Positions 4,062 through 19,838 of a DNA stretch of 32,750 nucleotides are shown here, piece by piece; within the stretch, counting starts at the first letter, position 1; every line of letters begins with the position of its first letter. The position numbers and the translations under genes are program-made. The notes under the pieces are model-generated. The model was not told the origin of the DNA. It did not search any database and saw only the letters and a list, made by a program, of their open reading frames with translations. The stretch lies in the IMG/VR virus record IMGVR_UViG_3300040770_000333, positions 1 to 32,750 of that record; one strand, given 5' to 3'. This DNA comes from a virus.

Positions 4062-4750
4062 TGAAACAGATAAATTTATTTAGTCAGTCGTTAAAGGAAG
4101 CAGCAAAATATATTGGCTGGGTTTTGTTGTTTATTTTTTTATGGTTTCGGGGTTGTTCTGGTGACACTCCAAAACCACAAACTACAAAAGTTACTGTTCC
4201 AGAAGTGAAAGCAAGTTTTGAAGCTAAGAAACCTAATCACGAGCTAATTGAAAAGGTCAAAAAAAGACCAACAAAATCACTAAGAAATAACTTTAATAAG
4301 AGTTCAAGTGTTGATTTTGTTGATAATGAAAAGACCAAAGAAAATGAAAAATTAAAATCTGATTTCGCAAAAGAAACAGATTCTTTAAAAAAAATAATAG
4401 CTTACAATAAAGCGGTTAAACTTAATAAATTCTCAACAAAGTTTGAAGATGAAAATTTATTACTAAACATCGATGGAATAGTACAAGGAGAAGTCCAAGA
4501 AGTTACGCCAAATTATACAATAAAGAAAAAGGAAGTATCTGTATCGGTTAAACAAAAAGAAACAGTATTTAGGGTATTAGCGGGTGGAGCTGTAGGAATT
4601 AACAAAGGCCTGAATCAAGCGGCGTATCAATTAGACCTTAATTTTCAAAATAGAAAAGGAAATATTATTTCTGCTGAATATTTAAACGTTGGAAATCAAG
4701 ATTTTGGAATGTTAGGCTATAAGCATTCTATAATTAATATTAAGAGGTAG
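4061..4750 (+). CDS. Membrane/lipoprotein-like protein, possible spanin-type lysis accessory
   Basis: 229 aa with a TAATG overlap with the endolysin. Hydrophobic N-terminus ending in FRGCSGD (a possible but atypical lipobox). The middle is Lys/Glu-rich. Confidence 0.45.
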   Translation: MKQINLFSQSLKEAAKYIGWVLLFIFLWFRGCSGDTPKPQTTKVTVPEVKASFEAKKPNHELIEKVKKRPTKSLRNNFNKSSSVDFVDNEKTKENEKLKSDFAKETDSLKKIIAYNKAVKLNKFSTKFEDENLLLNIDGIVQGEVQEVTPNYTIKKKEVSVSVKQKETVFRVLAGGAVGINKGLNQAAYQLDLNFQNRKGNIISAEYLNVGNQDFGMLGYKHSIINIKR

Positions 4751-4772
4751 GTTTTTTGTTTTTTTGTTGAGT

Positions 4773-4809
4773 AAAGCAGTTCTTAAATGAGCTGCTTTTT
4801 TTGTTTTTT
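4773..4809 (+). terminator. Rho-independent terminator of the fibre/lysis operon
   Basis: Stem AAAGCAG (4773-4779) pairs with CTGCTTT (4792-4798) and is followed by a long T tract. Confidence 0.65.
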
Positions 4810-4814
4810 AAAAG

Positions 4815-5050
4815 ATTGTCGGAATTATATCGGAATTTAATATTAATAAAAAAAGCGATAAACCTTTATATCATTGGGTTTATCGCTTTTTAATTGTGAC
4901 CACGGTGGTATTCACGAAGCCTAAATCAAATTAAATGCAATTAAACAAAAACATAGTAAAATTGAGTACTTAATCGGTTTTGTGTATGTTTTTATAAAAC
5001 TATATTTAAATGTATTTAATTAGTTGTCGGAATAATGTCGGAATTTAATT
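4815..5050. other. Candidate attP region with arm-type integrase binding repeats
   Basis: Two 26-nt direct repeats match at 24/26 positions: TTGTCGGAATTATATCGGAATTTAAT (4816-4841) and TTGTCGGAATAATGTCGGAATTTAAT (5024-5049). Each holds two TCGGAAT units 11 bp apart. They flank a roughly 180-bp non-coding core immediately upstream of int. The core contains ACCAC-G-GTGGT (4899-4909). Confidence 0.5.
4847..4892. terminator. Strong bidirectional hairpin terminator inside the att region
   Basis: Perfect 11-bp stem AGCGATAAACC (4854-4864) / GGTTTATCGCT (4877-4887), flanked by an A-run upstream and a T-run downstream. Confidence 0.6.
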
Positions 5051-5077
5051 TACCTTTACATTCCTAAAATTAAAAAT

Positions 5078-6268
5078 ATGGCAACTATTAAATTTTTATT
5101 AATCAGCGAGCAAAACCCATCTTATATTTATTTGCGATTTATCGATGGCAGAAATTTTGATTTTAAGGTAAAAACTAATTTCATAATAAACCCGATAGAC
5201 TGGAGCCAAGCAAAACAAAAACCCAAAAATTTAAAGAAAGTCGATTTTAAGAATCTCGATACCGAGCTTCAGAACTTAAAAACAAATTTACTACAACATT
5301 TTAATACTTCGACTGAAACTATAAATTTATTATGGTTAAAGAATTTCATTAACCCAAAAAATGAAAGTAATGCCCCAGATGAATTAATATTGTATTTTGA
5401 TTATTATTTAAAACTTCGAAAAAACGAACTCACTTTGGCGACCACTAAAAAAATAAATGTGGTTAAAAATAAATTGATCCAAATTGAAAAGTTCGCGAAC
5501 AAAAAATATAAAATCAAAGATGTTAATTTAGTTTTCAAAAAAGAATTTGAGGACTGGAACAAATCAAAAGGGTATGCGGACAATACTATTTCAGAAAATC
5601 TAAAAGAAATAAAATCTATTTGCCGGCACGCTGGAAAACACGGCGTGCCCATAAGTAATTTACTAAGTGATATTAGCACCACGCAAACTAAAGCGATCAG
5701 CATTTTTTTAACCTTTGAAGAAATCGAAAAAATACAAAATGCAGCATTAGAATTTGATTACTTACAAAATGCTAGGGACTGGCTTATTATCTCATGTTAC
5801 ACAGCGCAACGAGTGTCTGATTTTATGCGTTTCAATACCGAAATGATACGAGAGCAAGACGGAAATAAATTAATTGAATTTACGCAGCTTAAAACGGGCA
5901 AGATTATGACATTGCCATTACACCCAAAGGTTATTGAGGTCCTGAACAAACGCAATGGAGATTTCCCACACGCCATTTCCAGCCAGAAATACAACGACTA
6001 CATAAAAAAAGTATGTGAGATCGCAGAAATTAATGATACGGTGTACGGTGGAAAAATGGAAAAGAACCGAAAATTATTTAAGCAGTATAAAAAACATGAA
6101 TTGGTTACTTCGCACATTGGCCGCCGATCCTTTGCCACTAACTTTTACGGAAAAATACCTACTGCATTACTCATGGGTGCAACTGGCCATACAACCGAAG
6201 CAATGTTTCTTGTTTACATAGGAAAAAGCAACACCGATAAAGCTGTTGAATTGAGTAAGTATTTTTAG
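5078..6268 (+). CDS. int: Tyrosine recombinase / phage integrase (Bacteroidetes type with an N-terminal arm-binding domain)
   Basis: 396 aa. Catalytic signature is visible: TAQRVSDF (Arg I), SHIGRRSFAT (H-x-x-R), GHTTEAMFLVYIG (His ... Tyr). It is adjacent to the att-like repeats. Confidence 0.9.
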   Translation: MATIKFLLISEQNPSYIYLRFIDGRNFDFKVKTNFIINPIDWSQAKQKPKNLKKVDFKNLDTELQNLKTNLLQHFNTSTETINLLWLKNFINPKNESNAPDELILYFDYYLKLRKNELTLATTKKINVVKNKLIQIEKFANKKYKIKDVNLVFKKEFEDWNKSKGYADNTISENLKEIKSICRHAGKHGVPISNLLSDISTTQTKAISIFLTFEEIEKIQNAALEFDYLQNARDWLIISCYTAQRVSDFMRFNTEMIREQDGNKLIEFTQLKTGKIMTLPLHPKVIEVLNKRNGDFPHAISSQKYNDYIKKVCEIAEINDTVYGGKMEKNRKLFKQYKKHELVTSHIGRRSFATNFYGKIPTALLMGATGHTTEAMFLVYIGKSNTDKAVELSKYF

Positions 6269-6281
6269 GTTGAAAAAGTTA

Positions 6282-6761
6282 TTAATTAAGCAGAGTGTCG
6301 TTACCGAAATCTATTTTTAATAGTGTTGTAATTAATTTTTCAACATCTTTTAAAGTCAATGTAGTGTATGCATCACTATCAGATGATTTTTGTAAATATA
6401 ATGCAGTACTAAAATCGTAAAGCGCTAAATTATATCTTTTTCTATTCCATTTAAGATCAATTTTTTCCTTTGATTGCATTTGTGTTTTTGCAGTATTCAA
6501 ATCTTTAATAAATTGAGTTATACTTTCTTTGTCGTTAAAAGCAACTGATTTAATATCTGTAATTGACTTGTATTTTTCATTTTGAAAACCTAAATACAAC
6601 AAGTATCTAATTTCTTTAGTTTCTAATTCAGTAGATTTATCGTATAAAAAATTAATTTTCCCTATTTTTTGATCTATTAATTTTTCATTTTTTGTTTGGC
6701 CGAAACTAATTGCGGTTACTAATAATAAAATCCTTAATGTAATTTTTTTCATCTTTTTCAT
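6282..6761 (-). CDS. Secreted/periplasmic hypothetical protein co-oriented with the repressor (lysogenic-conversion or superinfection-exclusion candidate)
   Basis: 159 aa with the signal peptide MKKMKKITLRILLLVTAISFGQ. It starts 8 nt downstream of the repressor stop on the minus strand. Confidence 0.6.
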   Translation of the reverse strand: MKKMKKITLRILLLVTAISFGQTKNEKLIDQKIGKINFLYDKSTELETKEIRYLLYLGFQNEKYKSITDIKSVAFNDKESITQFIKDLNTAKTQMQSKEKIDLKWNRKRYNLALYDFSTALYLQKSSDSDAYTTLTLKDVEKLITTLLKIDFGNDTLLN

Positions 6762-6769
6762 TTTTTTAA

Positions 6770-7405
6770 TTAGAATAAATGGCTTGACGCCTGAACTTTG
6801 AATATTGCAGAAATACTGCTTTTTTTTATTTGTTGTGGTGGGAACTCCTCTTTTTTGCTGTCAGTAGGTTTACTAATTAATGTAAAATACTCGTCAGTAT
6901 CTCCCTTTGTAATCACTTTTATCATTCTAAAATTATCATTAGTTACAATAGCGTAAATCTCTCCAAAAGGGAAAAACTCCTGCCAGCTATTTATTTTTAT
7001 CAATCCTATTGCGTCTCCGTGACATATAACTTTTGCCATTGATTGACCCGATGCCCTTACCACATAATCACAACCTTTAAAAAACGGATGGCTAATATAG
7101 GAATCTGGTCTAATTTGATTGTTGTTTTCAATTACCAAAAAGCTTGCTGTAAAATCTATATCATAATATGGAACGCCTTTGTAATATTCCGCACCTGGTT
7201 CCGTAATTAAATTATTTGAATGATTAGTTTTATCAAGTTCGAAATCAAACATTTTTTCGATTTCTTTAATCTGTAAATTACTTAAACTTTTTCGATTAAC
7301 AGCCATTCTAAAAGCCTCTCCTTCCATACCAATAATAGATCCCAAGTCTTTATTGCTAAGCTTTTTTGTTGTCTTATGTAGCGCTAGTAATTTGTAAAAA
7401 TCCAT
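6770..7405 (-). CDS. cI/LexA-like repressor (HTH plus S24 peptidase domain)
   Basis: S24 motifs are present: VVRASGQSMAKV (nucleophilic Ser in G-x-S-M) and FRMIKVITKG (general-base Lys). The N-terminal HTH-like region is LSNKDLGSIIGMEGEAFRMAV. The start is set at the internal Met (MDFYKLL, 7405). The ORF-track extension to 7543 runs through the promoter/operator region. Confidence 0.75.
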   Translation of the reverse strand: MDFYKLLALHKTTKKLSNKDLGSIIGMEGEAFRMAVNRKSLSNLQIKEIEKMFDFELDKTNHSNNLITEPGAEYYKGVPYYDIDFTASFLVIENNNQIRPDSYISHPFFKGCDYVVRASGQSMAKVICHGDAIGLIKINSWQEFFPFGEIYAIVTNDNFRMIKVITKGDTDEYFTLISKPTDSKKEEFPPQQIKKSSISAIFKVQASSHLF

Positions 7406-7757
7406 ATCGATTTTATTTGTAATGATTATAAATAAACCATAATTCGAAATTTTGTTTGATTTATTTGTTTGAAATCGAACAAGTGTTTGTATATTTGCCT
7501 TGTACAAATGCAGATACGCAAATGTAGCGAAGTTCTTTGACATATAGAAAACAAAAAAACTACAAAAATTAAAGCCTGTGGGTTAAAAAATTCCCTATTT
7601 GAAATATGGCTGAAAAATAAAAAACGCTGTTGGATTTGAAATATGAATCTGCTTTCAATGCAACAACGGCACTAAATTTAATTTACGGACGCCGAATGTA
7701 CGACTAAAGATTATATAAAACGCTTAGAATCAGTATAAATAAAAAACAAACAAAAAA
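7406..7757. promoter_or_regulatory. Divergent genetic-switch region (repressor versus cro-like gene) with repeated operator-like motifs
   Basis: A perfect 12-bp direct repeat ATTTGAAATATG occurs at 7597-7608 and 7634-7645, with a related TTTGAAAT near 7469. -7-box-like TAnnTTTG motifs occur on both strands: TATATTTG near 7490 on +, and TACATTTG on - (complement near 7524-7531). Confidence 0.4.
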
Positions 7758-13308: not shown

Positions 13309-14178
13309 ATGGCTAGACCTAAAAAAGAAAATGCGGAATATTTTTCACATGATTCCGGGATGAGGAATGATCCTAAGATAAAAGCTTTGAGAAGAAGGTT
13401 TTCAATTGGTTATTCAGTTTATAACATGTTCTTGGAGTATTTGACCGATTGCAGTTTTTTTGAATTTGAAATGAATGATTTGCAATATGAAATTTTAGCT
13501 GGAGACTTTGATGTTGAAACTGAAACTTTAATTCAAATTTTGGATTACTGTGTTAAAATAGGGCTATTAGAACGACAAAATAATGTCTTTTTTTCGAATG
13601 GATTAAAGAAAAGACTTCAAACAGTTTTGGATAAGAGAAACAACTCAAAAAACAAGTTTCTGAATCAGAAACCAACCGAAAAAGCAAAAGAAGTACATGA
13701 AAGTGTAGTTTCTGTGACAGAAACTACACAAAGTAAAGTAAAGGAAAGTAAAGTAAAGGAAAGTATAGTTCTTTTAAAAAAAGAACCAAAAGAGGCGATT
13801 ATTGAGGTTGTAAAAATACAATATCCATTTTTTACAGAAAATTTTAAAACGCAATGGCAGCTTTGGAAAGTTTATAAATCAAAGGAATTTAATTTTAAAT
13901 ACAAATCAATTGAAAGTGAACAAGCTGCGCTTACAGAATTATCAAATCTTTCTCAAAAAAGCGAAAAAAAAGCTATTGAAATTATAAACCAGTCAATGGC
14001 AAAGGGCTGGAAAGGATTTTTTGAATTAAAAAATAATACTCAAAATGGAAAACAATTTAATAATTCAGGACCAAGTACAAATACGGGGTACAAACCTGCC
14101 ACAGTTGATCGAGAAAGACTTATTCAAGAGCTTACCTATGATGCTGCAAATGGAAATATCCCAGGTCAATATCAATAA
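13309..14178 (+). CDS. Replication-initiation-associated protein with a DUF4373 (Lin1244/Lin1753-like) N-terminal domain
   Basis: The N-terminus MARPKKENAEYFSHDSGMRNDPKIKALRRRFSIGYSVYNMFLEYL matches the characteristic YFxHD ... DxKI ... G pattern of DUF4373 phage replication proteins. It contains a KVKES x2 mini-repeat. Confidence 0.6.
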   Translation: MARPKKENAEYFSHDSGMRNDPKIKALRRRFSIGYSVYNMFLEYLTDCSFFEFEMNDLQYEILAGDFDVETETLIQILDYCVKIGLLERQNNVFFSNGLKKRLQTVLDKRNNSKNKFLNQKPTEKAKEVHESVVSVTETTQSKVKESKVKESIVLLKKEPKEAIIEVVKIQYPFFTENFKTQWQLWKVYKSKEFNFKYKSIESEQAALTELSNLSQKSEKKAIEIINQSMAKGWKGFFELKNNTQNGKQFNNSGPSTNTGYKPATVDRERLIQELTYDAANGNIPGQYQ

Positions 14179-14218
14179 TGCTCCAGCAGAGACAAAACTA
14201 AATCTTGCCGATGATGTG

Positions 14219-14884
14219 ATGAGATTGTTGCAGGTTCGAGAAAGAAACTCTGAAATGGCAAAGGATTGGTTATTGTTTATTTCTACTTCAAATTTTAAGA
14301 TTACAGCTGGTGAAATTTATTTGGCATTTAAGATGGCTTTGAGTAGAGAAATTTTGGATTCAAACGGAAAGGAAATTGATTTGTTCCCAGAATTAAGCAA
14401 CAACACCACGGGAAAAGTTATTTCTGCATACCTAAAACACAAAAACGAAAGTTTAAAGTATCAGAATGCAAAAGAAAAATTAAAGTGCCTTGAAACGCCT
14501 AAAAAAGAGTTTACTGAAATTGAAATAAAAAGCATTCGAGAAGATTTTTTAAAAACAATCTTTGATGAAATTACTTTAAATGGTTTTAGTATTGATGCTC
14601 ATCATTTGTTTTTAGACTTAGAAAAGTCTGGAAAACTTATAATTTCAATTGAAGAAAAGAAAAAGCTTTATAATCAACAACTTCAAATTTATATTTCTGC
14701 CCAAAAAGAAGAGATAAGATTGAAGGGTTCATTTTCAGTAAATCATTTGCTAAAAGACTTTGATAAAAGAATAAATTCTGGAAAACCATTGATTTATGTG
14801 GTCAATAAATGCAGAAGTATAACAGTTTCAAATTACTTGAAAAATCATTTAGAAGATTTCGAAGTTTTCAAGAAAGCGTTGTAA
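14219..14884 (+). CDS. Hypothetical replication-module protein (start uncertain)
   Basis: ORF 14045-14884 overlaps the upstream gene by 134 nt. In-frame Met codons lie at 14138, 14141, 14150 and 14219. The first Met past the upstream stop was chosen. Confidence 0.45.
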   Translation: MRLLQVRERNSEMAKDWLLFISTSNFKITAGEIYLAFKMALSREILDSNGKEIDLFPELSNNTTGKVISAYLKHKNESLKYQNAKEKLKCLETPKKEFTEIEIKSIREDFLKTIFDEITLNGFSIDAHHLFLDLEKSGKLIISIEEKKKLYNQQLQIYISAQKEEIRLKGSFSVNHLLKDFDKRINSGKPLIYVVNKCRSITVSNYLKNHLEDFEVFKKAL

Positions 14885-15090
14885 TGAAAGCTAAAATACT
14901 CCAGATCGTAAACAAAAAACACAGAGCAAGCAAAGGGAGTTGTGGAACTTACTTCAAAGATTTTATAAAAGAATTACAAATTCCATTAACCGAGTTTGAA
15001 CAGATCATTTCTGAAATGTACAACAATGATGAAATCCAAATCAGAGAAGGGATAAATGGGTTTCTAGTCATGAAAAAAGCAAAATTATGA
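14884..15090 (+). CDS. Hypothetical small protein
   Basis: ORF 14809-15090. The start is set at the Met in the TAATG overlap with the upstream stop (14882-14886). Confidence 0.45.
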   Translation: MKAKILQIVNKKHRASKGSCGTYFKDFIKELQIPLTEFEQIISEMYNNDEIQIREGINGFLVMKKAKL

Positions 15091-15275
15091 ATGATCCCAA
15101 CCAAGTAATTATTGCTAAGGCAATTTCAAAAGAGAATACCTATTTCATTTTCAGAAAAAATTCAGAAGAGGTAACACTTTCTTTAGAAGATACAGGATTA
15201 AAATCCAATCACAAACTAACTAACTCGGAAGTTCAATTCTTGAAAGAAGAATATTCATTTTTCTTTAAAAAATAA
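15087..15275 (+). CDS. Hypothetical small protein
   Basis: 62-aa ORF with an ATGA overlap with the upstream gene. Confidence 0.45.
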   Translation: MNDPNQVIIAKAISKENTYFIFRKNSEEVTLSLEDTGLKSNHKLTNSEVQFLKEEYSFFFKK

Positions 15276-15302
15276 AAATTTTAAACCTAAAAACTAATAG
15301 TA

Positions 15303-15473
15303 ATGAGTAAAAATAACCATTGTAACGTGTGCGGTTTTCCAGAAGAATCCTGCTTACACCAGCTTTTTAAACAGGCTAAAATAAGAGATACAAGGCTAAA
15401 CTGCATGTTGTGGTTCTCAATAGGTTTTGTTGCTGCAATAGGAATTATATTGATTGAAATATTGTGGGATTAA
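15303..15473 (+). CDS. Small CxxC-containing membrane protein (56 aa, below the ORF-track cutoff)
   Basis: Translates as MSKNNHCNVCGFPEESCLHQLFKQAKIRDTRLNCMLWFSIGFVAAIGIILIEILWD, with one TM helix. Its stop codon TAA is part of the GATTAAC box of the first attC-like site. Confidence 0.4.
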   Translation: MSKNNHCNVCGFPEESCLHQLFKQAKIRDTRLNCMLWFSIGFVAAIGIILIEILWD

Positions 15474-15597
15474 CGGACGTTGTCGCCACTTAGCTAGGTT
15501 GTGGAGTTATGAAAACGATTACTTTCTGCTTAATGTAAAAGTTTTTTAGAAACGGAAATTCCACTAAAACCGCAATCTTGCTAAATGGCTGTTGGCG
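15468..15597 (+). repeat. attC-like site 1 (130 nt imperfect hairpin)
   Basis: AAC box GATTAAC (15468-15474). 20-nt arm GCCACTTAGCTAGGTTGTGG (15485-15504) pairs with CCGCAATCTTGCTAAATGGC (15570-15589) and has a C.A mismatch at stem position 5. One nt (T) follows, then GTT box GTTGGCG (15591-15597). Confidence 0.55.
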
Positions 15598-15610
15598 GTA
15601 GGTTTTATTT

Positions 15611-15913
15611 TTATATAGATTCAAAAATCGCATCGTTTATTTTTTTTCGGCTTTCTGGGTTTATTAAATAGGATTGTAATAAGTTATATAAATCCATATT
15701 TCCAGAACTGCCACCACTAATATTTAAAGTGTCACAAAAAACAGTTACCGCACTTCTTATGTCATTTGTATCGATTGTTTGAGTTTGTGACCCACTTATT
15801 TGTTCTTTGACTTTCTGTAATCTCGGTTTTCCGTCAAATTGATATTGGCTAAACTGAGATAAAAAGTCAATTAACTTTTCGTGTCGAATTTGATGTTCAT
15901 TTATACGTTCCAT
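15611..15913 (-). CDS. Cassette-1 hypothetical protein (minus strand)
   Basis: 100-aa ORF with no competing plus-strand ORF in an AT-rich background. It is divergent from the mini P-loop gene, with only 18 nt between their start codons. Confidence 0.5.
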   Translation of the reverse strand: MERINEHQIRHEKLIDFLSQFSQYQFDGKPRLQKVKEQISGSQTQTIDTNDIRSAVTVFCDTLNISGGSSGNMDLYNLLQSYLINPESRKKINDAIFESI

Positions 15914-15931
15914 TATTTTAAATTATTTATT

Positions 15932-16180
15932 ATGAAAAAATCAGTTTTATTATTTGGGCTTAGAGCCTCAGGAAAAACAACTAAACTTAGAGAAATTCTC
16001 TCTGAAACTCCAACCTCTTTTGTGCTAGATGGAGCAATATCTGTTAAAGAAATATCTGCTCTTTATTCGCAAGCAATTAATGCTAATTCATTTTGTATTG
16101 TAGCAACTTTATTGGATGAGTTAGATTTTCCAAGTCATGTATTGTCAAATTTTGAGCTTATACGTTGTGACTTTCGCTAA
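15932..16180 (+). CDS. Cassette-1 miniature P-loop NTPase-like protein (82 aa)
   Basis: The Met at 15932 gives MKKSVLLFGLRASGKTTKL (Walker A GxxxxGKT), followed later by FCIVATLLDE (Walker-B-like hhhhDE). The ORF track starts further upstream at 15881. Confidence 0.5.
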   Translation: MKKSVLLFGLRASGKTTKLREILSETPTSFVLDGAISVKEISALYSQAINANSFCIVATLLDELDFPSHVLSNFELIRCDFR

Positions 16181-16186
16181 ACTTAC

Positions 16187-16319
16187 TGCCAACGGTCGCA
16201 GGCTTGCAGAAGTGGCAAAAAAGTAAGCCTTAATTTTCGGTTAAAGACCGAGCCACAAAGACACAAAAACAACTTTAAATTAAACCTGAACTTGCCATTT
16301 TTGCAAACCTGTGTTAGCA
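16187..16319 (+). repeat. attC-like site 2 (133 nt imperfect hairpin)
   Basis: TGCCAAC (16187-16193), 5-nt spacer GGTCG, then arm CAGGCTTGCAGAAGTGGCAA (16199-16218) pairing with TTGCCATTTTTGCAAACCTG (16292-16311). The stem has a C.A mismatch at position 5 and two G.T pairs. One T follows, then GTTAGCA (16313-16319). Confidence 0.6.
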
Positions 16320-16346
16320 TTAGTGCGGTTCTTAAAAATAAAAATT

Positions 16347-16808
16347 ATGAGCTTTTTAAAAGAAACTTTAGAAACTGTGCAATGTGATAATTGCAAAACT
16401 ACCTACCAAGATGAAAGTACTGGTTACGCTTTTTGGCTTGATAAAAACGATGCTTGGGAATGTTCTAATGAAGATGGTTGGACAGAAAATAGTGAAAAAC
16501 ATTATTGTCCAAAATGCCACAATTACAACGATGAAGATGAATTGATAATAAATACAGAAAGAACAAAAATAGACAAAAGTGTTTTTCCTGAACATTTATT
16601 GGATAATATAACTGCTGAACCTTTTGATTATTTTTTAGGAGTTGATACTTATGATAAAAAAGCATTGGCTTTATGTCTATCAAGAAAAACAGAAAAAGGA
16701 GTTGAAATTTTATTATCAAGGGTTTCACAAGACGAAGTTTCTTTTGAAAATGAAGTAAAATTATTATCAGAATTATTTAATGCAAACGTCTTAAGAACGC
16801 AATCGTAG
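16347..16808 (+). CDS. Cassette-2 protein with an N-terminal zinc-ribbon-like CxxC ... CxxC motif
   Basis: The ATG at 16347 gives MSFLKETLETVQCDNCKT ... HYCPKCHN. The ORF-track start at 16311 is a GTG that lies inside the GTT box of attC-like site 2. Confidence 0.55.
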   Translation: MSFLKETLETVQCDNCKTTYQDESTGYAFWLDKNDAWECSNEDGWTENSEKHYCPKCHNYNDEDELIINTERTKIDKSVFPEHLLDNITAEPFDYFLGVDTYDKKALALCLSRKTEKGVEILLSRVSQDEVSFENEVKLLSELFNANVLRTQS

Positions 16809-16814
16809 CATTGA

Positions 16815-16947
16815 TGCTAACGTTTCGCAGCCTTGCTTTGTACCGACCAAGTACAGACTATTTTTCGGATGAACACCAGTAACAACAAACACAAAATAAT
16901 ACCAACCAAAGCCAAGTAAAAGGTATAGAGCAAGACTGCTGTTATGC
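16815..16947 (+). repeat. attC-like site 3 (133 nt imperfect hairpin)
   Basis: TGCTAAC (16815-16821), 5-nt spacer GTTTC, then arm GCAGCCTTGCTTTGTACC (16827-16844) pairing with GGTATAGAGCAAGACTGC (16922-16939). The stem has a C.A mismatch at position 5. One T follows, then GTTATGC (16941-16947). Its central region shares TTTTCGG and ACAAA-ACACAAAA blocks with site 2. Confidence 0.6.
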
Positions 16948-16972
16948 GTTCGGCTTTTTAAAACTGAATATT

Positions 16973-17218
16973 ATGTATAACTTATCAATTAATCCTGAAA
17001 AATGGGTGAAAATGTCAGATTTAGAACTAGAAATGAATAAACCATTTTGGTTTAAAAAACCCGATGGTAAAATAGTAATGGGCGCACCATATTCAAATGG
17101 ATATAGTTCTGGAATAGCGGAGGTTTATTTAGCAGAAGATGGCTTAAAAATAAAAACTAATACGTTTCTTATTTTACGAGATAGTCTAATTCAAGAGGTT
17201 CTCGAAGCTGACGCATAA
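16973..17218 (+). CDS. Cassette-3 hypothetical protein
   Basis: 81-aa ORF. Its last codons and stop (GACGCATAA-C) form the AAC box that complements the GTTATGCGT at the cassette start. Confidence 0.5.
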   Translation: MYNLSINPEKWVKMSDLELEMNKPFWFKKPDGKIVMGAPYSNGYSSGIAEVYLAEDGLKIKTNTFLILRDSLIQEVLEADA

Positions 17219-17283
17219 CTTCTTTATATACGTAACCATTGTGGTAATAAACAAATAAAACCAAAGCATATGATTACCACAAT
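17211..17283 (+). repeat. Terminal AAC half-site plus a perfect 11-bp hairpin spanning the next start codon
   Basis: ACGCATAAC (17211-17219) is followed by ATTGTGGTAAT (17238-17248) / ATTACCACAAT (17273-17283). The ATG of the next ORF (17270) lies in the loop. No clear GTT box follows at the spacing seen in sites 1-3. Confidence 0.4.
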
Positions 17284-17530
17284 AGAATTTAAACAAGGTT
17301 TCATTTATAAGGGGGTAAGGCACGCTTGGAAGAAAGGAAAATTATACAGATTACCATTCAAAAGAAACAAAAGAACTTATGGATTAAGAGAAATACCGAT
17401 GTATGTATTTAAAACAACCGCAGTTTATAATATCCAAAGAGATAAAATAACATTTTTAAAACTGAAACAAAGAACGGAATGTGTTACTTGGGAAGTAGAA
17501 ATTTTAATTGATGATGAATATCCATTTTAA
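17270..17530 (+). CDS. Hypothetical small basic protein
   Basis: 86-aa ORF and the last gene before the early/late terminator. Confidence 0.45.
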   Translation: MITTIEFKQGFIYKGVRHAWKKGKLYRLPFKRNKRTYGLREIPMYVFKTTAVYNIQRDKITFLKLKQRTECVTWEVEILIDDEYPF

Positions 17531-17613
17531 ACCGCAACACCATGAAATAATCAACAACTCCCAAAGCGATTGTATAAATAAATTTTATGTTTTCTGACGA
17601 GAAAATCGCTTAC

Positions 17614-17651
17614 GAGCAACCAGTGAACAATAGTATCTGGTTGCTTTTTTG
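17614..17651 (+). terminator. Rho-independent terminator separating the early/cassette region from the late operon
   Basis: GCAACCAG (16-23 of the 176xx line, i.e. 17616-17623) pairs with CTGGTTGC (17637-17644) and is followed by TTTTTT. Confidence 0.7.
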
Positions 17652-17699
17652 AAAACAATAAAATATTAAATTAAGAATATATTGTAATAGTTAATTTCG

Positions 17700-17707
17700 T
17701 AAATTTG
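17700..17707 (+). promoter_or_regulatory. Bacteroidetes-type -7 box (TAAATTTG) upstream of the late operon
   Basis: Matches the TAnnTTTG consensus of Bacteroidota sigma-A promoters. It ends only 5 nt before the ATG at 17713, which would imply a near-leaderless transcript. Confidence 0.3.
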
Positions 17708-17712
17708 TTATA

Positions 17713-18180
17713 ATGATTAAAAGGAAAATAGATAAAGAGACCGCAATAAAATCAATACTTTCAGATTTAAAAAAAGGTATTGACAAGAAGTCTATTTTCG
17801 GAAGGATTCGGAAAAATTCGGAAATTCCTAAAAGTACTATTTATGATTGGTATAGAGTGGCTGAAACAAAATACAAAGAGTTCCTTTCCGTAGCAAATCC
17901 AATCATTGAAGCTAAAGAAATTGAAGCGTTAGGACAAATAGCAGTTTCAAATATTTTATCAAAGCTAGAGAGACAATTATTACTTTCGGATATTGCAAGA
18001 GGAAATGTAAAAGTTTGGAAAGAAGCATTATCTAAAGATGGAAAAGTAAAGCTTAGTTATTACGACCCAGTTAAGTATATAAACGAACTCAACAAAATGG
18101 ATGGGGCGTACATTGAAGATCAAGGAAATGACAATGATATAACTGAAATTAAAATTACAAGAATTGGTTCGATAACATAA
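17713..18180 (+). CDS. HTH-containing protein, possible small terminase subunit
   Basis: 155 aa and the first gene of the late operon, two genes upstream of terL. N-terminal HTH-like segment IPKSTIYDWYRVAE. Confidence 0.35.
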   Translation: MIKRKIDKETAIKSILSDLKKGIDKKSIFGRIRKNSEIPKSTIYDWYRVAETKYKEFLSVANPIIEAKEIEALGQIAVSNILSKLERQLLLSDIARGNVKVWKEALSKDGKVKLSYYDPVKYINELNKMDGAYIEDQGNDNDITEIKITRIGSIT

Positions 18181-18190
18181 AATTACATCT

Positions 18191-18586
18191 ATGAAATTAA
18201 TATCAATGACCGATTTTGTTTTGCATGAACAAAGATTTAAAGAAGATAGCGATTTAGCTGTTTTTAAAATAACTAACTACGCAAACTTCCTTAAACAACC
18301 TTTAGAGTTATGGATGTTTGTTCCTTGTAATAATGATGGTAATGTTTTGGATAGACCAAAAGAGCATTTAGAGAATAGAAGCATTTACTATAATGAATTA
18401 AGAGAATACCAACAAGAAAAAGAAAAATGTTTGTTTGAAGGATGGCAGTATTGCGATAAGTCCAACACAATAAGAGACGGTGTATTTACTTTGAGTTTAG
18501 AAAAAATAAAAGATTACACAATTGAATATTTAATTAATTTGGATATTACATTAAGCGAATCTGCAATTAAAAAATTAGGCATTTAA
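18191..18586 (+). CDS. Hypothetical protein
   Basis: 131-aa ORF between the putative terS and terL. Confidence 0.5.
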   Translation: MKLISMTDFVLHEQRFKEDSDLAVFKITNYANFLKQPLELWMFVPCNNDGNVLDRPKEHLENRSIYYNELREYQQEKEKCLFEGWQYCDKSNTIRDGVFTLSLEKIKDYTIEYLINLDITLSESAIKKLGI

Positions 18587-18635: not shown

Positions 18636-19838
18636 ATGGAAATAAACCTTAGTTTACTTGGTCATCAAGAAGATTTTGTATTCTCAAATGCAAAGCACAC
18701 CATATTAGTGGCTGGTTTTGGTAGCGGAAAAACAGAAGCTGCAATAGTGAAATCAGCTATTAAACTAATGACCACCGCTTCTAATCTAAACATTGGTTAC
18801 TACCTTCCCAATTACCCACTAATCAACGATATTGCAGTCCCTCGTTTTCAAGAGTTTTTTGAATATCACGGTATTGAATATAAATACAATTCAAGCGAAA
18901 AGGTTTTTAGGACAAAGTTTGGAAAATTGTTACTTCGAAATATGACGAAACCCGAAACAATAGTAGGGTATGAAACATTCTATTCTATTGTTGATGAAAT
19001 CGATATTTTACCAAAAGCCAAAGCAAAAGCAGTTTTTAATAAAATTATTGCAAGGAATAGACAAGTATGCTCAAAAGGTCAAAAGAATTCGATTGATCTG
19101 GTATCTACTCCAGAAGGTTTTAATTTTCTTTACAATTTTTCCGTAAAAGAATCCAGTACCGAAAAGTTTCTAATTAAAGCCAAAACAAACGACAATCCCT
19201 TTTTGCCTGATGACTACATTACTACATTGTCAGCACAATACACCAAAGAAGAATTAACCGCATATATAAATGGCGAATTCTGCAATCTTACTAGCGGTTC
19301 GGTTTACAAGTCATATGATAGAGAAAAGCACAACACCAACAAACTTGCTGGAATAGATTTATACATTGGTATGGATTTCAACGTTCAAAACATGCACGCA
19401 ATTGTTCACGTCATTGATGGTGGCGCAATGTATGCAGTAGATGAATTTGTAAAAATATACAACACGCAGGAGCTTTGCGATCAGATAAGGGAACGATACC
19501 CAAACCAAAAAATCGAAATCAATCCAGATGCCAGTTGCAGAAACAGAAATACTGCTGGACTATCTGATTATGATATAATTATAGATGAAAAATATAATTT
19601 TGAAGTAAACATACGCAGGAAAAACCCCGAAATTTTAAATAGGGTTCGAGGTGTAAATAAAGCGTTTGAGGATGGGAAATATTTTGTAAATTTGAGCAGA
19701 TGCCCGAACTATTCTGATGCGTTAAGTCAGCAAACGTATGACAAGGGATTACCTGATAAAAAAAGCGGGCTTGATCATATCAATGATGCTGGCACGTATT
19801 GTGTAATAGAGCAAATCTATATAAGTGGATTGGATTAA
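18636..19838 (+). CDS. terL: Terminase large subunit
   Basis: 400 aa. Walker A is VAGFGSGKTEAA and Walker B is FYSIVDEIDI. The C-terminal acidic nuclease-like motifs (IGMDFN, INPDAS, HINDAG) are arranged as in TerL. Confidence 0.85.
   Translation: MEINLSLLGHQEDFVFSNAKHTILVAGFGSGKTEAAIVKSAIKLMTTASNLNIGYYLPNYPLINDIAVPRFQEFFEYHGIEYKYNSSEKVFRTKFGKLLLRNMTKPETIVGYETFYSIVDEIDILPKAKAKAVFNKIIARNRQVCSKGQKNSIDLVSTPEGFNFLYNFSVKESSTEKFLIKAKTNDNPFLPDDYITTLSAQYTKEELTAYINGEFCNLTSGSVYKSYDREKHNTNKLAGIDLYIGMDFNVQNMHAIVHVIDGGAMYAVDEFVKIYNTQELCDQIRERYPNQKIEINPDASCRNRNTAGLSDYDIIIDEKYNFEVNIRRKNPEILNRVRGVNKAFEDGKYFVNLSRCPNYSDALSQQTYDKGLPDKKSGLDHINDAGTYCVIEQIYISGLD

Follow-up and report, generated by a model that had tools for sequence, protein, structure and literature searches.

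A three-cassette array in a Flavobacterium-type phage and the integron-like cassette family of Bacteroidota phages to which it belongs

Three attC-like elements and their cassettes

A stretch of viral DNA of 32,750 nt (IMG/VR virus record IMGVR_UViG_3300040770_000333, positions 1 to 32,750; hereafter the window) carries an array of three small gene cassettes, each headed by a hairpin element that resembles the attC sites of integrons. The elements, termed E1 to E3, all lie on the plus strand between open reading frames (ORFs) inside 1.5 kb. They share one layout, in which AAC is followed by a short spacer, an imperfect stem of 18-21 bp around 65-77 nt, a single base and GTT; the stems are unlike in sequence and alike in geometry. 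E1 (15472-15593) consists of AAC at 15472-15474, a 10-nt spacer, a 20-bp imperfect stem (15485-15504 / 15570-15589) around a 65-nt loop, a T and GTT at 15591-15593. E2 (16191-16315) has AAC at 16191-16193, stem arms at 16198-16218 and 16292-16312, a loop of 73 nt and GTT at 16313-16315, and E3 (16819-16943) has AAC at 16819-16821, arms at 16827-16844 and 16922-16939, and GTT at 16941-16943. The array begins at the AAC box of E1 (TATTGTGGGATTAAC, 15460-15474, plus strand), which is taken as its distal boundary because no complementary GTT box was noticed by eye just upstream; this box also holds the TAA stop of the backbone ORF 15303-15473. Cassette 1 (15475-16193), whose limits are inferred from the breakpoints of the wider family, comprises the E1 hairpin, a GTT box at 15591-15605, two ORFs (15611-15913 on the minus strand, 100 amino acids (aa), and 15935-16180 on the plus strand, 81 aa with a weak P-loop match) and an AAC box at 16179-16193. 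Cassette 2 (16194-16821, plus strand) contains E2, a GTT box at 16313-16327, an ORF at 16347-16808 (153 aa, N-terminally Zn-ribbon-like, phrog_17873) and an AAC box at 16807-16821. Cassette 3 (16822-17219, plus strand) contains E3, a GTT box at 16941-16955, an ORF at 16973-17218 (81 aa) and the terminal AAC box at 17205-17219. Family searches recognised no function in any of the cassette proteins of the window.

To place these elements against background, both strands of the whole window were scanned for stem-loops with a stem of 14 bp or longer that are set off by spacers from an AAC in front and a GTT behind. E1 to E3 took the first three ranks with scores of 17, 14.5 and 14, followed by a next score of 12, and these three hits with a score of at least 14 compare with 0.17 expected per window from 60 dinucleotide-preserving shuffles. 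The three elements and their common architecture, as described in the initial annotation of this DNA, are thereby confirmed. That annotation had also noticed that each GTT box is complementary to the AAC box at the far end of the same cassette, and this pairing proved to be real and longer than claimed (13-15 nt). Over 13 nt, the box at 15591 pairs with the box ending at 16193 through 11 Watson-Crick and two G.T pairs, the boxes at 16313 and 16821 pair with the same counts, and those at 16941 and 17219 form ten Watson-Crick pairs and one G.T pair. An inverted-repeat scan for GTT...AAC without the hairpin returned hundreds of matches against ~144 in shuffles and is informative only for the counts at the three cassettes.

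The folding energies of the individual elements are not significant (z -2.3 to +0.4), and an Rfam search of 14500-18500 gave no meaningful match, both of which would suit chance hairpins, intrinsic terminators or duplicated intergenic repeats. Such an origin is nevertheless practically out of the question: it is ruled out by the shuffles, by a family of hundreds of members and by the covariation of their stems. Moreover, loops of ~60-80 nt, the lack of a T-run and stem sequences that are unlike between copies agree with the earlier judgement that terminators or duplicated repeats are inadequate. The evidence for E1 to E3 is thus their shared architecture and covariation, not the folding energy of any single element.

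Homologous arrays add to this evidence. E2 with its leader (16191-16344, 154 nt) has an intergenic counterpart of 83.8% identity in 16 records from virulent Flavobacterium phages (genus Muminvirus). A homologue of cassette 2 in locus L370 (75% identity over 16265-16825) has boxes that differ from those of the window yet co-vary, with GTTAGCAT.../...ATGCTAAC in the window and GTTATGGTTAGTGC.../...GCATTAACCATAAC in L370. Complementarity is thus kept in a homologous array by compensatory change, the point on which the initial annotation had staked its reading beforehand. In addition, the body of the cassette 3 ORF and its identical boxes recur in locus L372 (83% over 16935-17219) within a longer array, where a hairpin element, not a terminal site, follows the cassette 3 homologue.

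A family of covarying elements in Bacteroidota phages and genomes

The 5' consensus of the elements, TAACGTTTYGCRGCYTTG, was found in at least 118 stretches of viral contigs and at least 120 of prokaryotic genome contigs. The prokaryotic matches are overwhelmingly from Bacteroidota (Flavobacterium, Kaistella, Chryseobacterium, Chitinophagaceae, Sphingobacteriaceae and Saprospiraceae). A scan of these loci yielded 487 non-redundant elements, with arrays of 5-12 being common, and gave the family consensus A..ATTG-NNNN-TAAC | G(T/G)TT(T/C) - stem - loop - stem - T - GTTA-NNNN-(C/T)(A/T)GT, in which the vertical bar marks the point of exchange described below. The elements fall into two length classes of ~85 nt and ~122-126 nt. 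Since the thresholds of the scanner miss degenerate or half elements, the linkage frequencies reported here are lower bounds. E2 and E3 have all features of the family (TAAC|G, a spacer of ~5 nt, a covarying stem of ~20 bp with a C.A mismatch at position 5 and G.T at position 14, a loop, T and GTTA, with boxes that pair cassette by cassette), and E1 has them with a 10-nt spacer; E1 to E3 therefore belong to a large integron-like cassette family of Bacteroidota phages.

The stems of this family covary strongly. When 140 diverse copies are compared, pairing reaches 88-100% at 17 of the 18 stem positions, each of which shows 3-6 pair types; with shuffled partners, the paired fraction is 0.4-0.7. 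Two positions carry fixed irregularities, namely a C.A mismatch at position 5 (conserved in 64%) and a G.T pair at position 14 (137/140). RNAalifold analysis of 30 natural copies that include E1 to E3 predicted 19 pairs, 18 of them with compensatory changes. A different pattern is seen for the 15-nt boxes, which within one element are paired at 0.35-0.81 of variable positions, near the level of shuffles, and at 0.61-0.82 with the AAC box of the next element. Matches at 13 or more of the 15 positions occur in 98 of 236 adjacent element pairs; the rate is 0.26% for random pairs and 0.6% for same-element pairs. Every ORF therefore lies between the two halves of an inverted repeat of its own, an arrangement shared with integron cassettes. 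Under DNA parameters, the more stable fold is that of the sense strand in 106 of 109 reconstituted sites, a comparison that is partly biased because the scanner rewards G.T pairs.

The cargo of the family consists mostly of DNA modification genes, including N6/N4, C5, MT-A70 and D12 methyltransferases, Mom and a PAPS-reductase-like protein, which suggests an anti-restriction use; Erf, terminase and similar backbone genes never stand directly behind an element. Several cassettes have a start codon inside the hairpin loop (L046 3895-4012, L046 2496-2621, L047 5972-6097), from which the 3' arm and the GTT box would be translated (for example ...QPFCQTRVSG). In the window, the loops of E1 and E3 contain upstream ORFs (uORFs) of 9 and 16 codons, the latter within the 77-nt loop of E3, and the 3' arm of E2 (16292-16387 region) could encode the peptide LPFLQTCVSI out of frame with the real ORF. 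The 322 long loops show weak periodicities of 19 nt and 37-38 nt with motifs such as GCACAAATGTT, and the spacing of the size classes by ~38 nt suggests that loops are made of repeat units of ~19 nt.

Array-linked recombinase and attI-like site

Clustering of the ORFs from element-bearing loci revealed a tyrosine recombinase of ~270 aa that lies directly 3' of the arrays on the same strand. It contains the domains PF00589 and PF13495, and the catalytic residues R-K-HxxR-H-Y are all present. Its best NCBIfam models are XerA/'integron integrase' (188 bits, cut-off 220) and the integron integrase model TIGR02249 (170 bits, cut-off 265), and NF011946 gives 103 against a cut-off of 435; XerA (PDB 5HXY, E 1e-34) and NF040815 are its best matches. 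The insertion specific to IntI is missing from the recombinase, which breaks the TIGR02249 match into two parts, with query residues 179-202 standing against residues 181-247 of VchIntIA (2A3V).

The locus search was run with recombinase alignment A3, alignment A2 being too diverse, and the recombinase-only search of viral contigs returned 80 loci. Of 57 informative loci, 38 have a same-strand element at most 2.5 kb upstream of the recombinase, and any element downstream of it was found in 4 of 72 loci. The AAC box of the final cassette is positioned ~50 nt 5' of the recombinase ATG and continues into a conserved, hairpin-less motif, TAAC|TAYTATATGTA, which is present at 58 distinct loci. In four loci this one motif and the recombinase stand next to four different cassettes. 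In a few recombinase loci (L083 1067-1202, L136 11283-11418 and L290-L291), ~60 nt separate the recombinase start from a very strong upstream hairpin (score 21) for which the opposite strand scores best; this may represent an alternative arrangement of the terminal site.

In the window, the array ends with GCATAAC|TTCTTTATATACGTAAC at 17213-17236. The segment 17220-17236 (plus strand, AAC|TTCTTTATATACGTAAC), which is followed by neither a hairpin nor a recombinase gene, looks by eye like the terminal sites AAC|TTCTATATGTA of L354, AAC|GCCCCTATATACGCACC of Leef_1 and TAAC|TAYTATATGTA. Judged by resemblance only, it is regarded with moderate confidence as the degenerate remnant of an attI-like terminal site. 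Both this remnant and, in relatives, the recombinase and attI-like site of the family had been overlooked in the initial annotation. A tblastn search found no homologue of the array-linked recombinase in the window, whose array is read as having lost this gene. Having three cassettes, a terminal site that is degenerate and no array-linked recombinase, the window resembles a CALIN (cluster of attC sites lacking integron integrases), and its array would be either a CALIN-like relic or dependent on a recombinase supplied in trans. Just past the terminal site, a perfect 11-bp hairpin (ATTGTGGTAAT / ATTACCACAAT, 17238-17283, plus strand; z -1.1 / -1.9) spans the start of ORF 17270-17530; it is without the features of the family and probably stands outside the cassette system.

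Cassette exchange between related phages

Three sets of closely related phages show, independently of one another, where cassettes are gained, lost, swapped and reordered. In four Muminvirus species with backbones that are 99.7-100% identical over the region, the differences examined, namely a 500-bp indel with gp008, a methyltransferase swap and a three-way divergence, all end inside YTAAC|G(TT). Contigs L332 and L333 are 98.8% identical in the recombinase region, including the attI-like site, and their cassettes are 97.7-100% identical and differ in order, with all boundaries at TAAC. For the cultured Polaribacter phage Freya, whose isolates form one species, 4,921 bp of Freya_10 are missing from Freya_1 and 3,185 bp from Freya_5, and both junctions read (AAC box)AAC|ACCCCTATAAC. 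The presence/absence breakpoints of relatives thus fall exactly at the boxes, as the initial annotation had anticipated, but at TAAC|G of the 5' box and not at G|TT. It follows from breakpoints within TAAC|G of the AAC box that the hairpin moves with the downstream ORF, and the exchanged unit is [G-hairpin-GTT box-ORF-...TAAC]; the earlier assignment of each hairpin to its upstream ORF is contradicted by these recent crossovers. Likewise, the ORFs point to their AAC box as had been described, which is superficially integron-like, but their polarity to the recombining box is opposite to that of classical cassettes.

The Freya series comprises ten isolates with graded lengths from 43,978 to 48,920 bp, and the records used here (L373/L375-L379) are Freya_1, _5, _8 and _10 (MT732463, MT732467, MT732470 and MT732472). 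At the three Freya junctions examined, blocks of small ORFs directly 5' of the 'integrase' are joined at AAC|ACCCCTATAAC. Homing endonuclease mobility was considered and rejected; the HNH genes of Freya and Muminvirus lie outside the cassettes. A methyltransferase cassette gene may be common to phages of different host genera. Here, the N-termini alone were compared: the Muminvirus N6_N4 methyltransferase behind an E2-like element (L046 3153-3890) begins with MIDIRLSDNLELMAEI and the 'CALIN' methyltransferase of Polaribacter phage P12002L (NC_028924) with MIDIRLSDNLDLMAEM.

An int-adjacent attP is the usual phage layout, and the genes of cultured relatives are annotated as 'integrase' and read as a sign of temperate potential. 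The small recombinase could accordingly be a lysogeny integrase with its attP immediately upstream, the hairpin cassettes being morons that gather beside attP and are moved by other means. The terminal site may also loosely resemble a dif-type core such as that of E. coli dif. This explanation is judged improbable. On its array side, the site always adjoins a cassette-type AAC box with a partner GTT box and hairpin, never constant phage or host DNA. Different cassettes occur at identical sites, and the blocks of cassettes by which the isolates of Freya differ are joined to the site exactly; the window, furthermore, has a separate 396-aa integrase beside an S24 repressor (5078-7543) for lysogeny. 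The lysogeny and cassette roles of the recombinase are, however, not mutually exclusive.

Proposed mechanism and its alternatives

From the sites and their covariation, the box pairing, the TAAC| breakpoints, the permutation of cassettes and the linkage of arrays to a recombinase and an attI-like site, a working model of a cassette system that is integron-like in operation can be outlined, and the array at 15472-17236 is likely to be a three-cassette example of it in a Bacteroidota phage. In this model, a cassette would consist of a G, a 5-nt spacer, a stem of ~20 bp with a loop of 20-80 nt, a T, the GTT box, a leader, one or more ORFs and the AAC box. In a circular cassette, or with the ORF looped out in single-stranded DNA (ssDNA), the AAC box (A..ATTG-NNNN-TAAC) would pair with its own GTT box (GTTA-NNNN-CAGT), and the resulting 15-bp 'R box' duplex would stack beneath the hairpin to create an attC-like folded site. 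The predicted site has an outer duplex, an asymmetric 5/1-nt bulge, an inner duplex with the fixed C.A mismatch and the fixed G.T pair, and a variable loop. The small Xer/IntI-related recombinase encoded beside the arrays would be the catalyst, with strand cleavage and exchange within TAAC, where the outer duplex has its inner end. Its substrate is presumably folded ssDNA, most likely of the sense strand. By these steps the enzyme could remove and insert cassettes and change their order, both at other AAC boxes and at the hairpin-less attI-like site.

Several observations weigh against this model. The link between the recombinase and the cassettes is one of association only, and no such recombinase is present in the window, in Muminvirus mumin6-1 or in P12002L. 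The arrays of Muminvirus nonetheless differ between species, so that either a trans-acting enzyme or another process would operate there. For a minority of comparisons, older and more diverged ones, the boundary lies at the GTT box or the start codon (L046/L047, cassette 3 of the window versus L372, and E2 versus Muminvirus); this could come from the other strand being used now and then, or from different processes. The boxes also share 13-20 nt of imperfect similarity, so short-homology recombination at the boxes might produce the same junctions. The G.T pairs, the sense-strand bias and the start codons in loops fit a role at the RNA level equally well. In addition, the related small 'integrase' of the cultured phages Freya, Leef and Ingeline (~30% identical) has been read as evidence of lysogeny or temperate potential (PMC8776804); under the cassette model, these 'integrase' genes need not mean lysogeny. 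Finally, P12002L_attC1, which by eye looks like a short-form member of the family and is treated further below, did not recombine with IntI1 (PMC9892861).

Some of these points converge on an alternative in which the elements are cis-acting RNA or regulatory modules (5'-UTR, intercistronic, promoter/leader or processing elements) and their exchange is a by-product of general or short-homology recombination, as proposed for the stem-loops of T4-type phages (PMC2839356, PMC4122927). It is the sense strand that bears the structure, including an invariant pair compatible with G.U, the elements stand directly upstream of ORFs, ATG is found in 74% of long loops and some cassettes start there, translating the 3' arm and GTT box, and an E2-like element with its leader is kept up to the start codon before unrelated ORFs. 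The variation of arrays in virulent phages without a recombinase and the similarity of 13-20 nt at junctions could be accommodated as well. Even so, an RNA function with incidental exchange is considered rather unlikely, as it leaves unexplained the strict positioning of a tyrosine recombinase and a conserved hairpin-less site at the array end, the confinement of breakpoints to 4 nt (TAAC) even where the terminal site shares only AAC with the boxes, the private co-varying 15-nt inverted repeat around each ORF and the permutation of 100%-identical cassettes. An RNA role could also exist alongside the role in recombination.

Comparison with integrons and other mobile systems

The cassette system shares many features with integrons. 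Both have arrays of mostly single-ORF cassettes with one folded imperfect palindrome each and boxes of the RYYYAAC / GTTRRRY type, which are complementary within the cassette and not across one hairpin in the array. In both, the crossover fits a position at AA|C (= G|TT) on the inner side of the R box, the folded site combines conserved non-Watson-Crick marks, an unpaired spacer between duplexes and a variable loop, and a hairpin-less primary site lies beside a tyrosine recombinase with PF13495 and PF00589; cassette order is shuffled among relatives. The differences are equally clear. The array-linked recombinase is without the IntI insertion and falls below the NCBIfam integron-integrase cut-offs. 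Here the site lies 5' of its ORF, ORFs and recombinase read in one direction with the recombinase at the 3' end of the array, and the better-folding strand is the coding strand. The R box measures 13-15 bp instead of 7 bp, the bulge is an asymmetric one of 5/1 nt, the sites form two classes of ~85 / ~124 nt and start codons often lie within them. Viewed on the opposite strand, the integron layout is recovered (integrase pointing away, primary site, array, G|TT of R'), but with the cassette ORFs inverted. Of the features that define integrons, the cassette-wise complementarity of boxes is found in the window and in the family. The crossover at G|TT of R' with attC 3' of the ORF is replaced by breakpoints at TAAC|G with the hairpin 5' of the ORF, and an adjacent IntI with its additional domain is lacking in the window, as is that domain in the family recombinase. 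An attI analogue, TAAC|TAYTATATGTA, occurs in relatives with different cassettes at identical sites, and only a degenerate look-alike is seen in the window. Because defining features of integrons fail, the array of the window is classified as integron-like and not as an integron, and the core of the initial annotation, which saw an integron-like array of cassettes in a temperate phage of Bacteroidota, is upheld.

CALINs, defined by two or more attC sites within ~4 kb and no intI close by, provide a further comparison. The window likewise has sites without a recombinase, with a layout of three sites in 1.5 kb, and its assignment to the CALINs would depend on the sites fitting the canonical attC model. 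The initial annotation knew of no well-characterised, functional cassette array of this kind in a phage genome, but phage CALINs had already been published (PMC9892861). In that work, 10,705 phage genomes were screened with IntegronFinder2 and HattCI, and no Flavobacterium or Muminvirus phage appears in its tables or text (PMC9892861). One of its sites, P12002L_attC1, was found by HattCI only and treated as a canonical attC, and it was the sole site that did not recombine with IntI1 (PMC9892861). By eye, P12002L_attC1 (TGCTAACGGCTACGGCTAAACGG...CCGTTTTAGCCATTGTTAGGC) shows the short-form architecture and the boxes of the present family (compare L048 3891-3960). It is also phage-borne and integrase-less and flanks an N6_N4 methyltransferase with an N-terminus that matches Muminvirus gp007. 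The family, its recombinase, the attI-like site, the crossover at the AAC box and the long-loop form are absent from that report, and a literature search found no paper that describes the cassette system, PMC9892861 being the closest. Among Bacteroidota, IntegronFinder 2.0 detected a complete integron for Salinibacter ruber only (PMC9024848).

Other mobile systems share single features with the array. The nearest analogy among phages is with the PeSL mobile regulatory cassettes of T4-type phages. PeSLs are composites of an early promoter and a terminator stem-loop, conserved in sequence from copy to copy, for which recombination through homology between copies has been proposed. At the elements described here, by-eye inspection for Bacteroidota promoter motifs gave no clear result. 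As in the cassette family, the intergenic PeSLs flank small accessory ORFs in hyperplastic regions, the motifs mark the ends of insertions, deletions and replacements that distinguish close relatives, and circular intermediates have been proposed (PMC2839356, PMC4122927). The present elements differ in that stems vary between copies, a T-run is lacking, junctions are fixed to 4 nt and the complementary boxes are private to each cassette, and in the linkage of their arrays to a dedicated tyrosine recombinase and terminal site. The Xer/dif system, integrative mobile elements exploiting Xer (IMEX) and archaeal XerA have in common with the family a 'simple' two-domain Xer-type tyrosine recombinase; here, by contrast, this enzyme is phage-encoded, has multi-copy hairpin sites as neighbours and is connected with the turnover of cassettes, not with chromosome dimer resolution.

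The combination of a hairpin, a fixed TAAC| junction and a complementary box recalls IS608, with its hairpin, TTAC| junction and guide-type pairing. With IS200/IS605 elements and MITEs (miniature inverted-repeat transposable elements), the cassettes share hairpin-defined ends, a fixed tetranucleotide junction, a complementary box that is able to position cleavage and the existence of non-autonomous units common to phages and hosts. It is conceivable that the cassettes move by ssDNA transposition of the IS200/IS605, palindrome-associated transposable element (PATE) or MITE type, in which an HUH enzyme would cleave 3' of TAAC with box pairing as its guide, and many MITEs shared between Flavobacterium phages and hosts have been found in surveys (PMC11602168). 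Nevertheless, this origin is very unlikely. No HUH or TnpA-like gene was found among the 16 largest protein clusters near arrays, where the recurrent enzyme is a tyrosine recombinase, and each unit has a single hairpin, not one at both ends. The cassettes also differ from these transposons in carrying ORFs and in forming ordered arrays.

Position of the array in the phage genome

The window (~31% G+C) is a temperate phage or prophage of the Flavobacterium type. A 396-aa integrase (5078-6268) lies beside the S24 repressor (6770-7543, minus strand). This integrase is an ordinary phage integrase with PF13102, is the sole tyrosine recombinase of the window and stands 9 kb from the array. Between the upstream plus-strand genes and this integrase, a gap of 330 bp (4750-5078) is likely to be the attP region of the prophage, distinct from the cassette array. 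The lysogeny genes are followed by early and replication genes and then by the large terminase (TerL, 18636-19838). A putative small terminase (TerS, 17713-18180) was assigned from its position and from a match to the TerS region of relatives; it had no family match. As the initial annotation stated, the array is found at the early/late junction, between the final early genes and this putative small terminase; ORF 17270-17530 separates the array from the latter. At the equivalent position, Freya has the order array, integrase, HNH, several ORFs and small terminase. An exact-protein look-up of TerS and of a 279-aa ORF in the replication region matched no record, and the TerL relatives (L001-L020) have no DNA similarity 5' of TerS, with two elements in L010 only, and thus contributed little to mapping the breakpoints of this particular array. 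The 279-aa ORF (14045-14884) overlaps the ORF of a Lin1244_N protein (13309-14178) on the same plus strand by 134 nt in a different frame and may have a later start or involve a frameshift. A sub-threshold Rfam match to Gut-1 RNA at 15118-15189 on the minus strand (23.9 bits, gathering score 50, E 0.18), inside ORF 15087-15275, is probably due to chance.

Implications

If the cassette model holds, phages of a major aquatic and gut phylum would own a machinery for cassette exchange. Standard tools would miss such a system because its recombinase has no IntI signature and its sites seem to escape the attC model; that integron surveys have found near nothing in Bacteroidota and scattered sites in phages may thus point to a blind spot. 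Experimental access is favoured by the existence of cultured phage-host pairs (Freya, Leef_1, Ingeline and Muminvirus), among which the Freya isolate series offers a ready-made cultured model. The system could also serve as a comparison case for the origin of folded ssDNA sites and of integron integrases from Xer recombinases. Taken more broadly, the balance of observations leans towards a gene-capture platform of Bacteroidota phages, perhaps independent of or sister to integrons, with a simple Xer/IntI-related recombinase that has no IntI insertion, a hairpin-less attI-like site, upstream co-transcribed attC-like sites of ~85/~124 nt, a cargo rich in DNA-modification (anti-restriction) genes and apparent ongoing activity in cultured phages, on which the array of the window could be mobilised in trans by co-infecting phages. 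Such exchange would account for the swapping of methyltransferase and small accessory genes within one bloom season.

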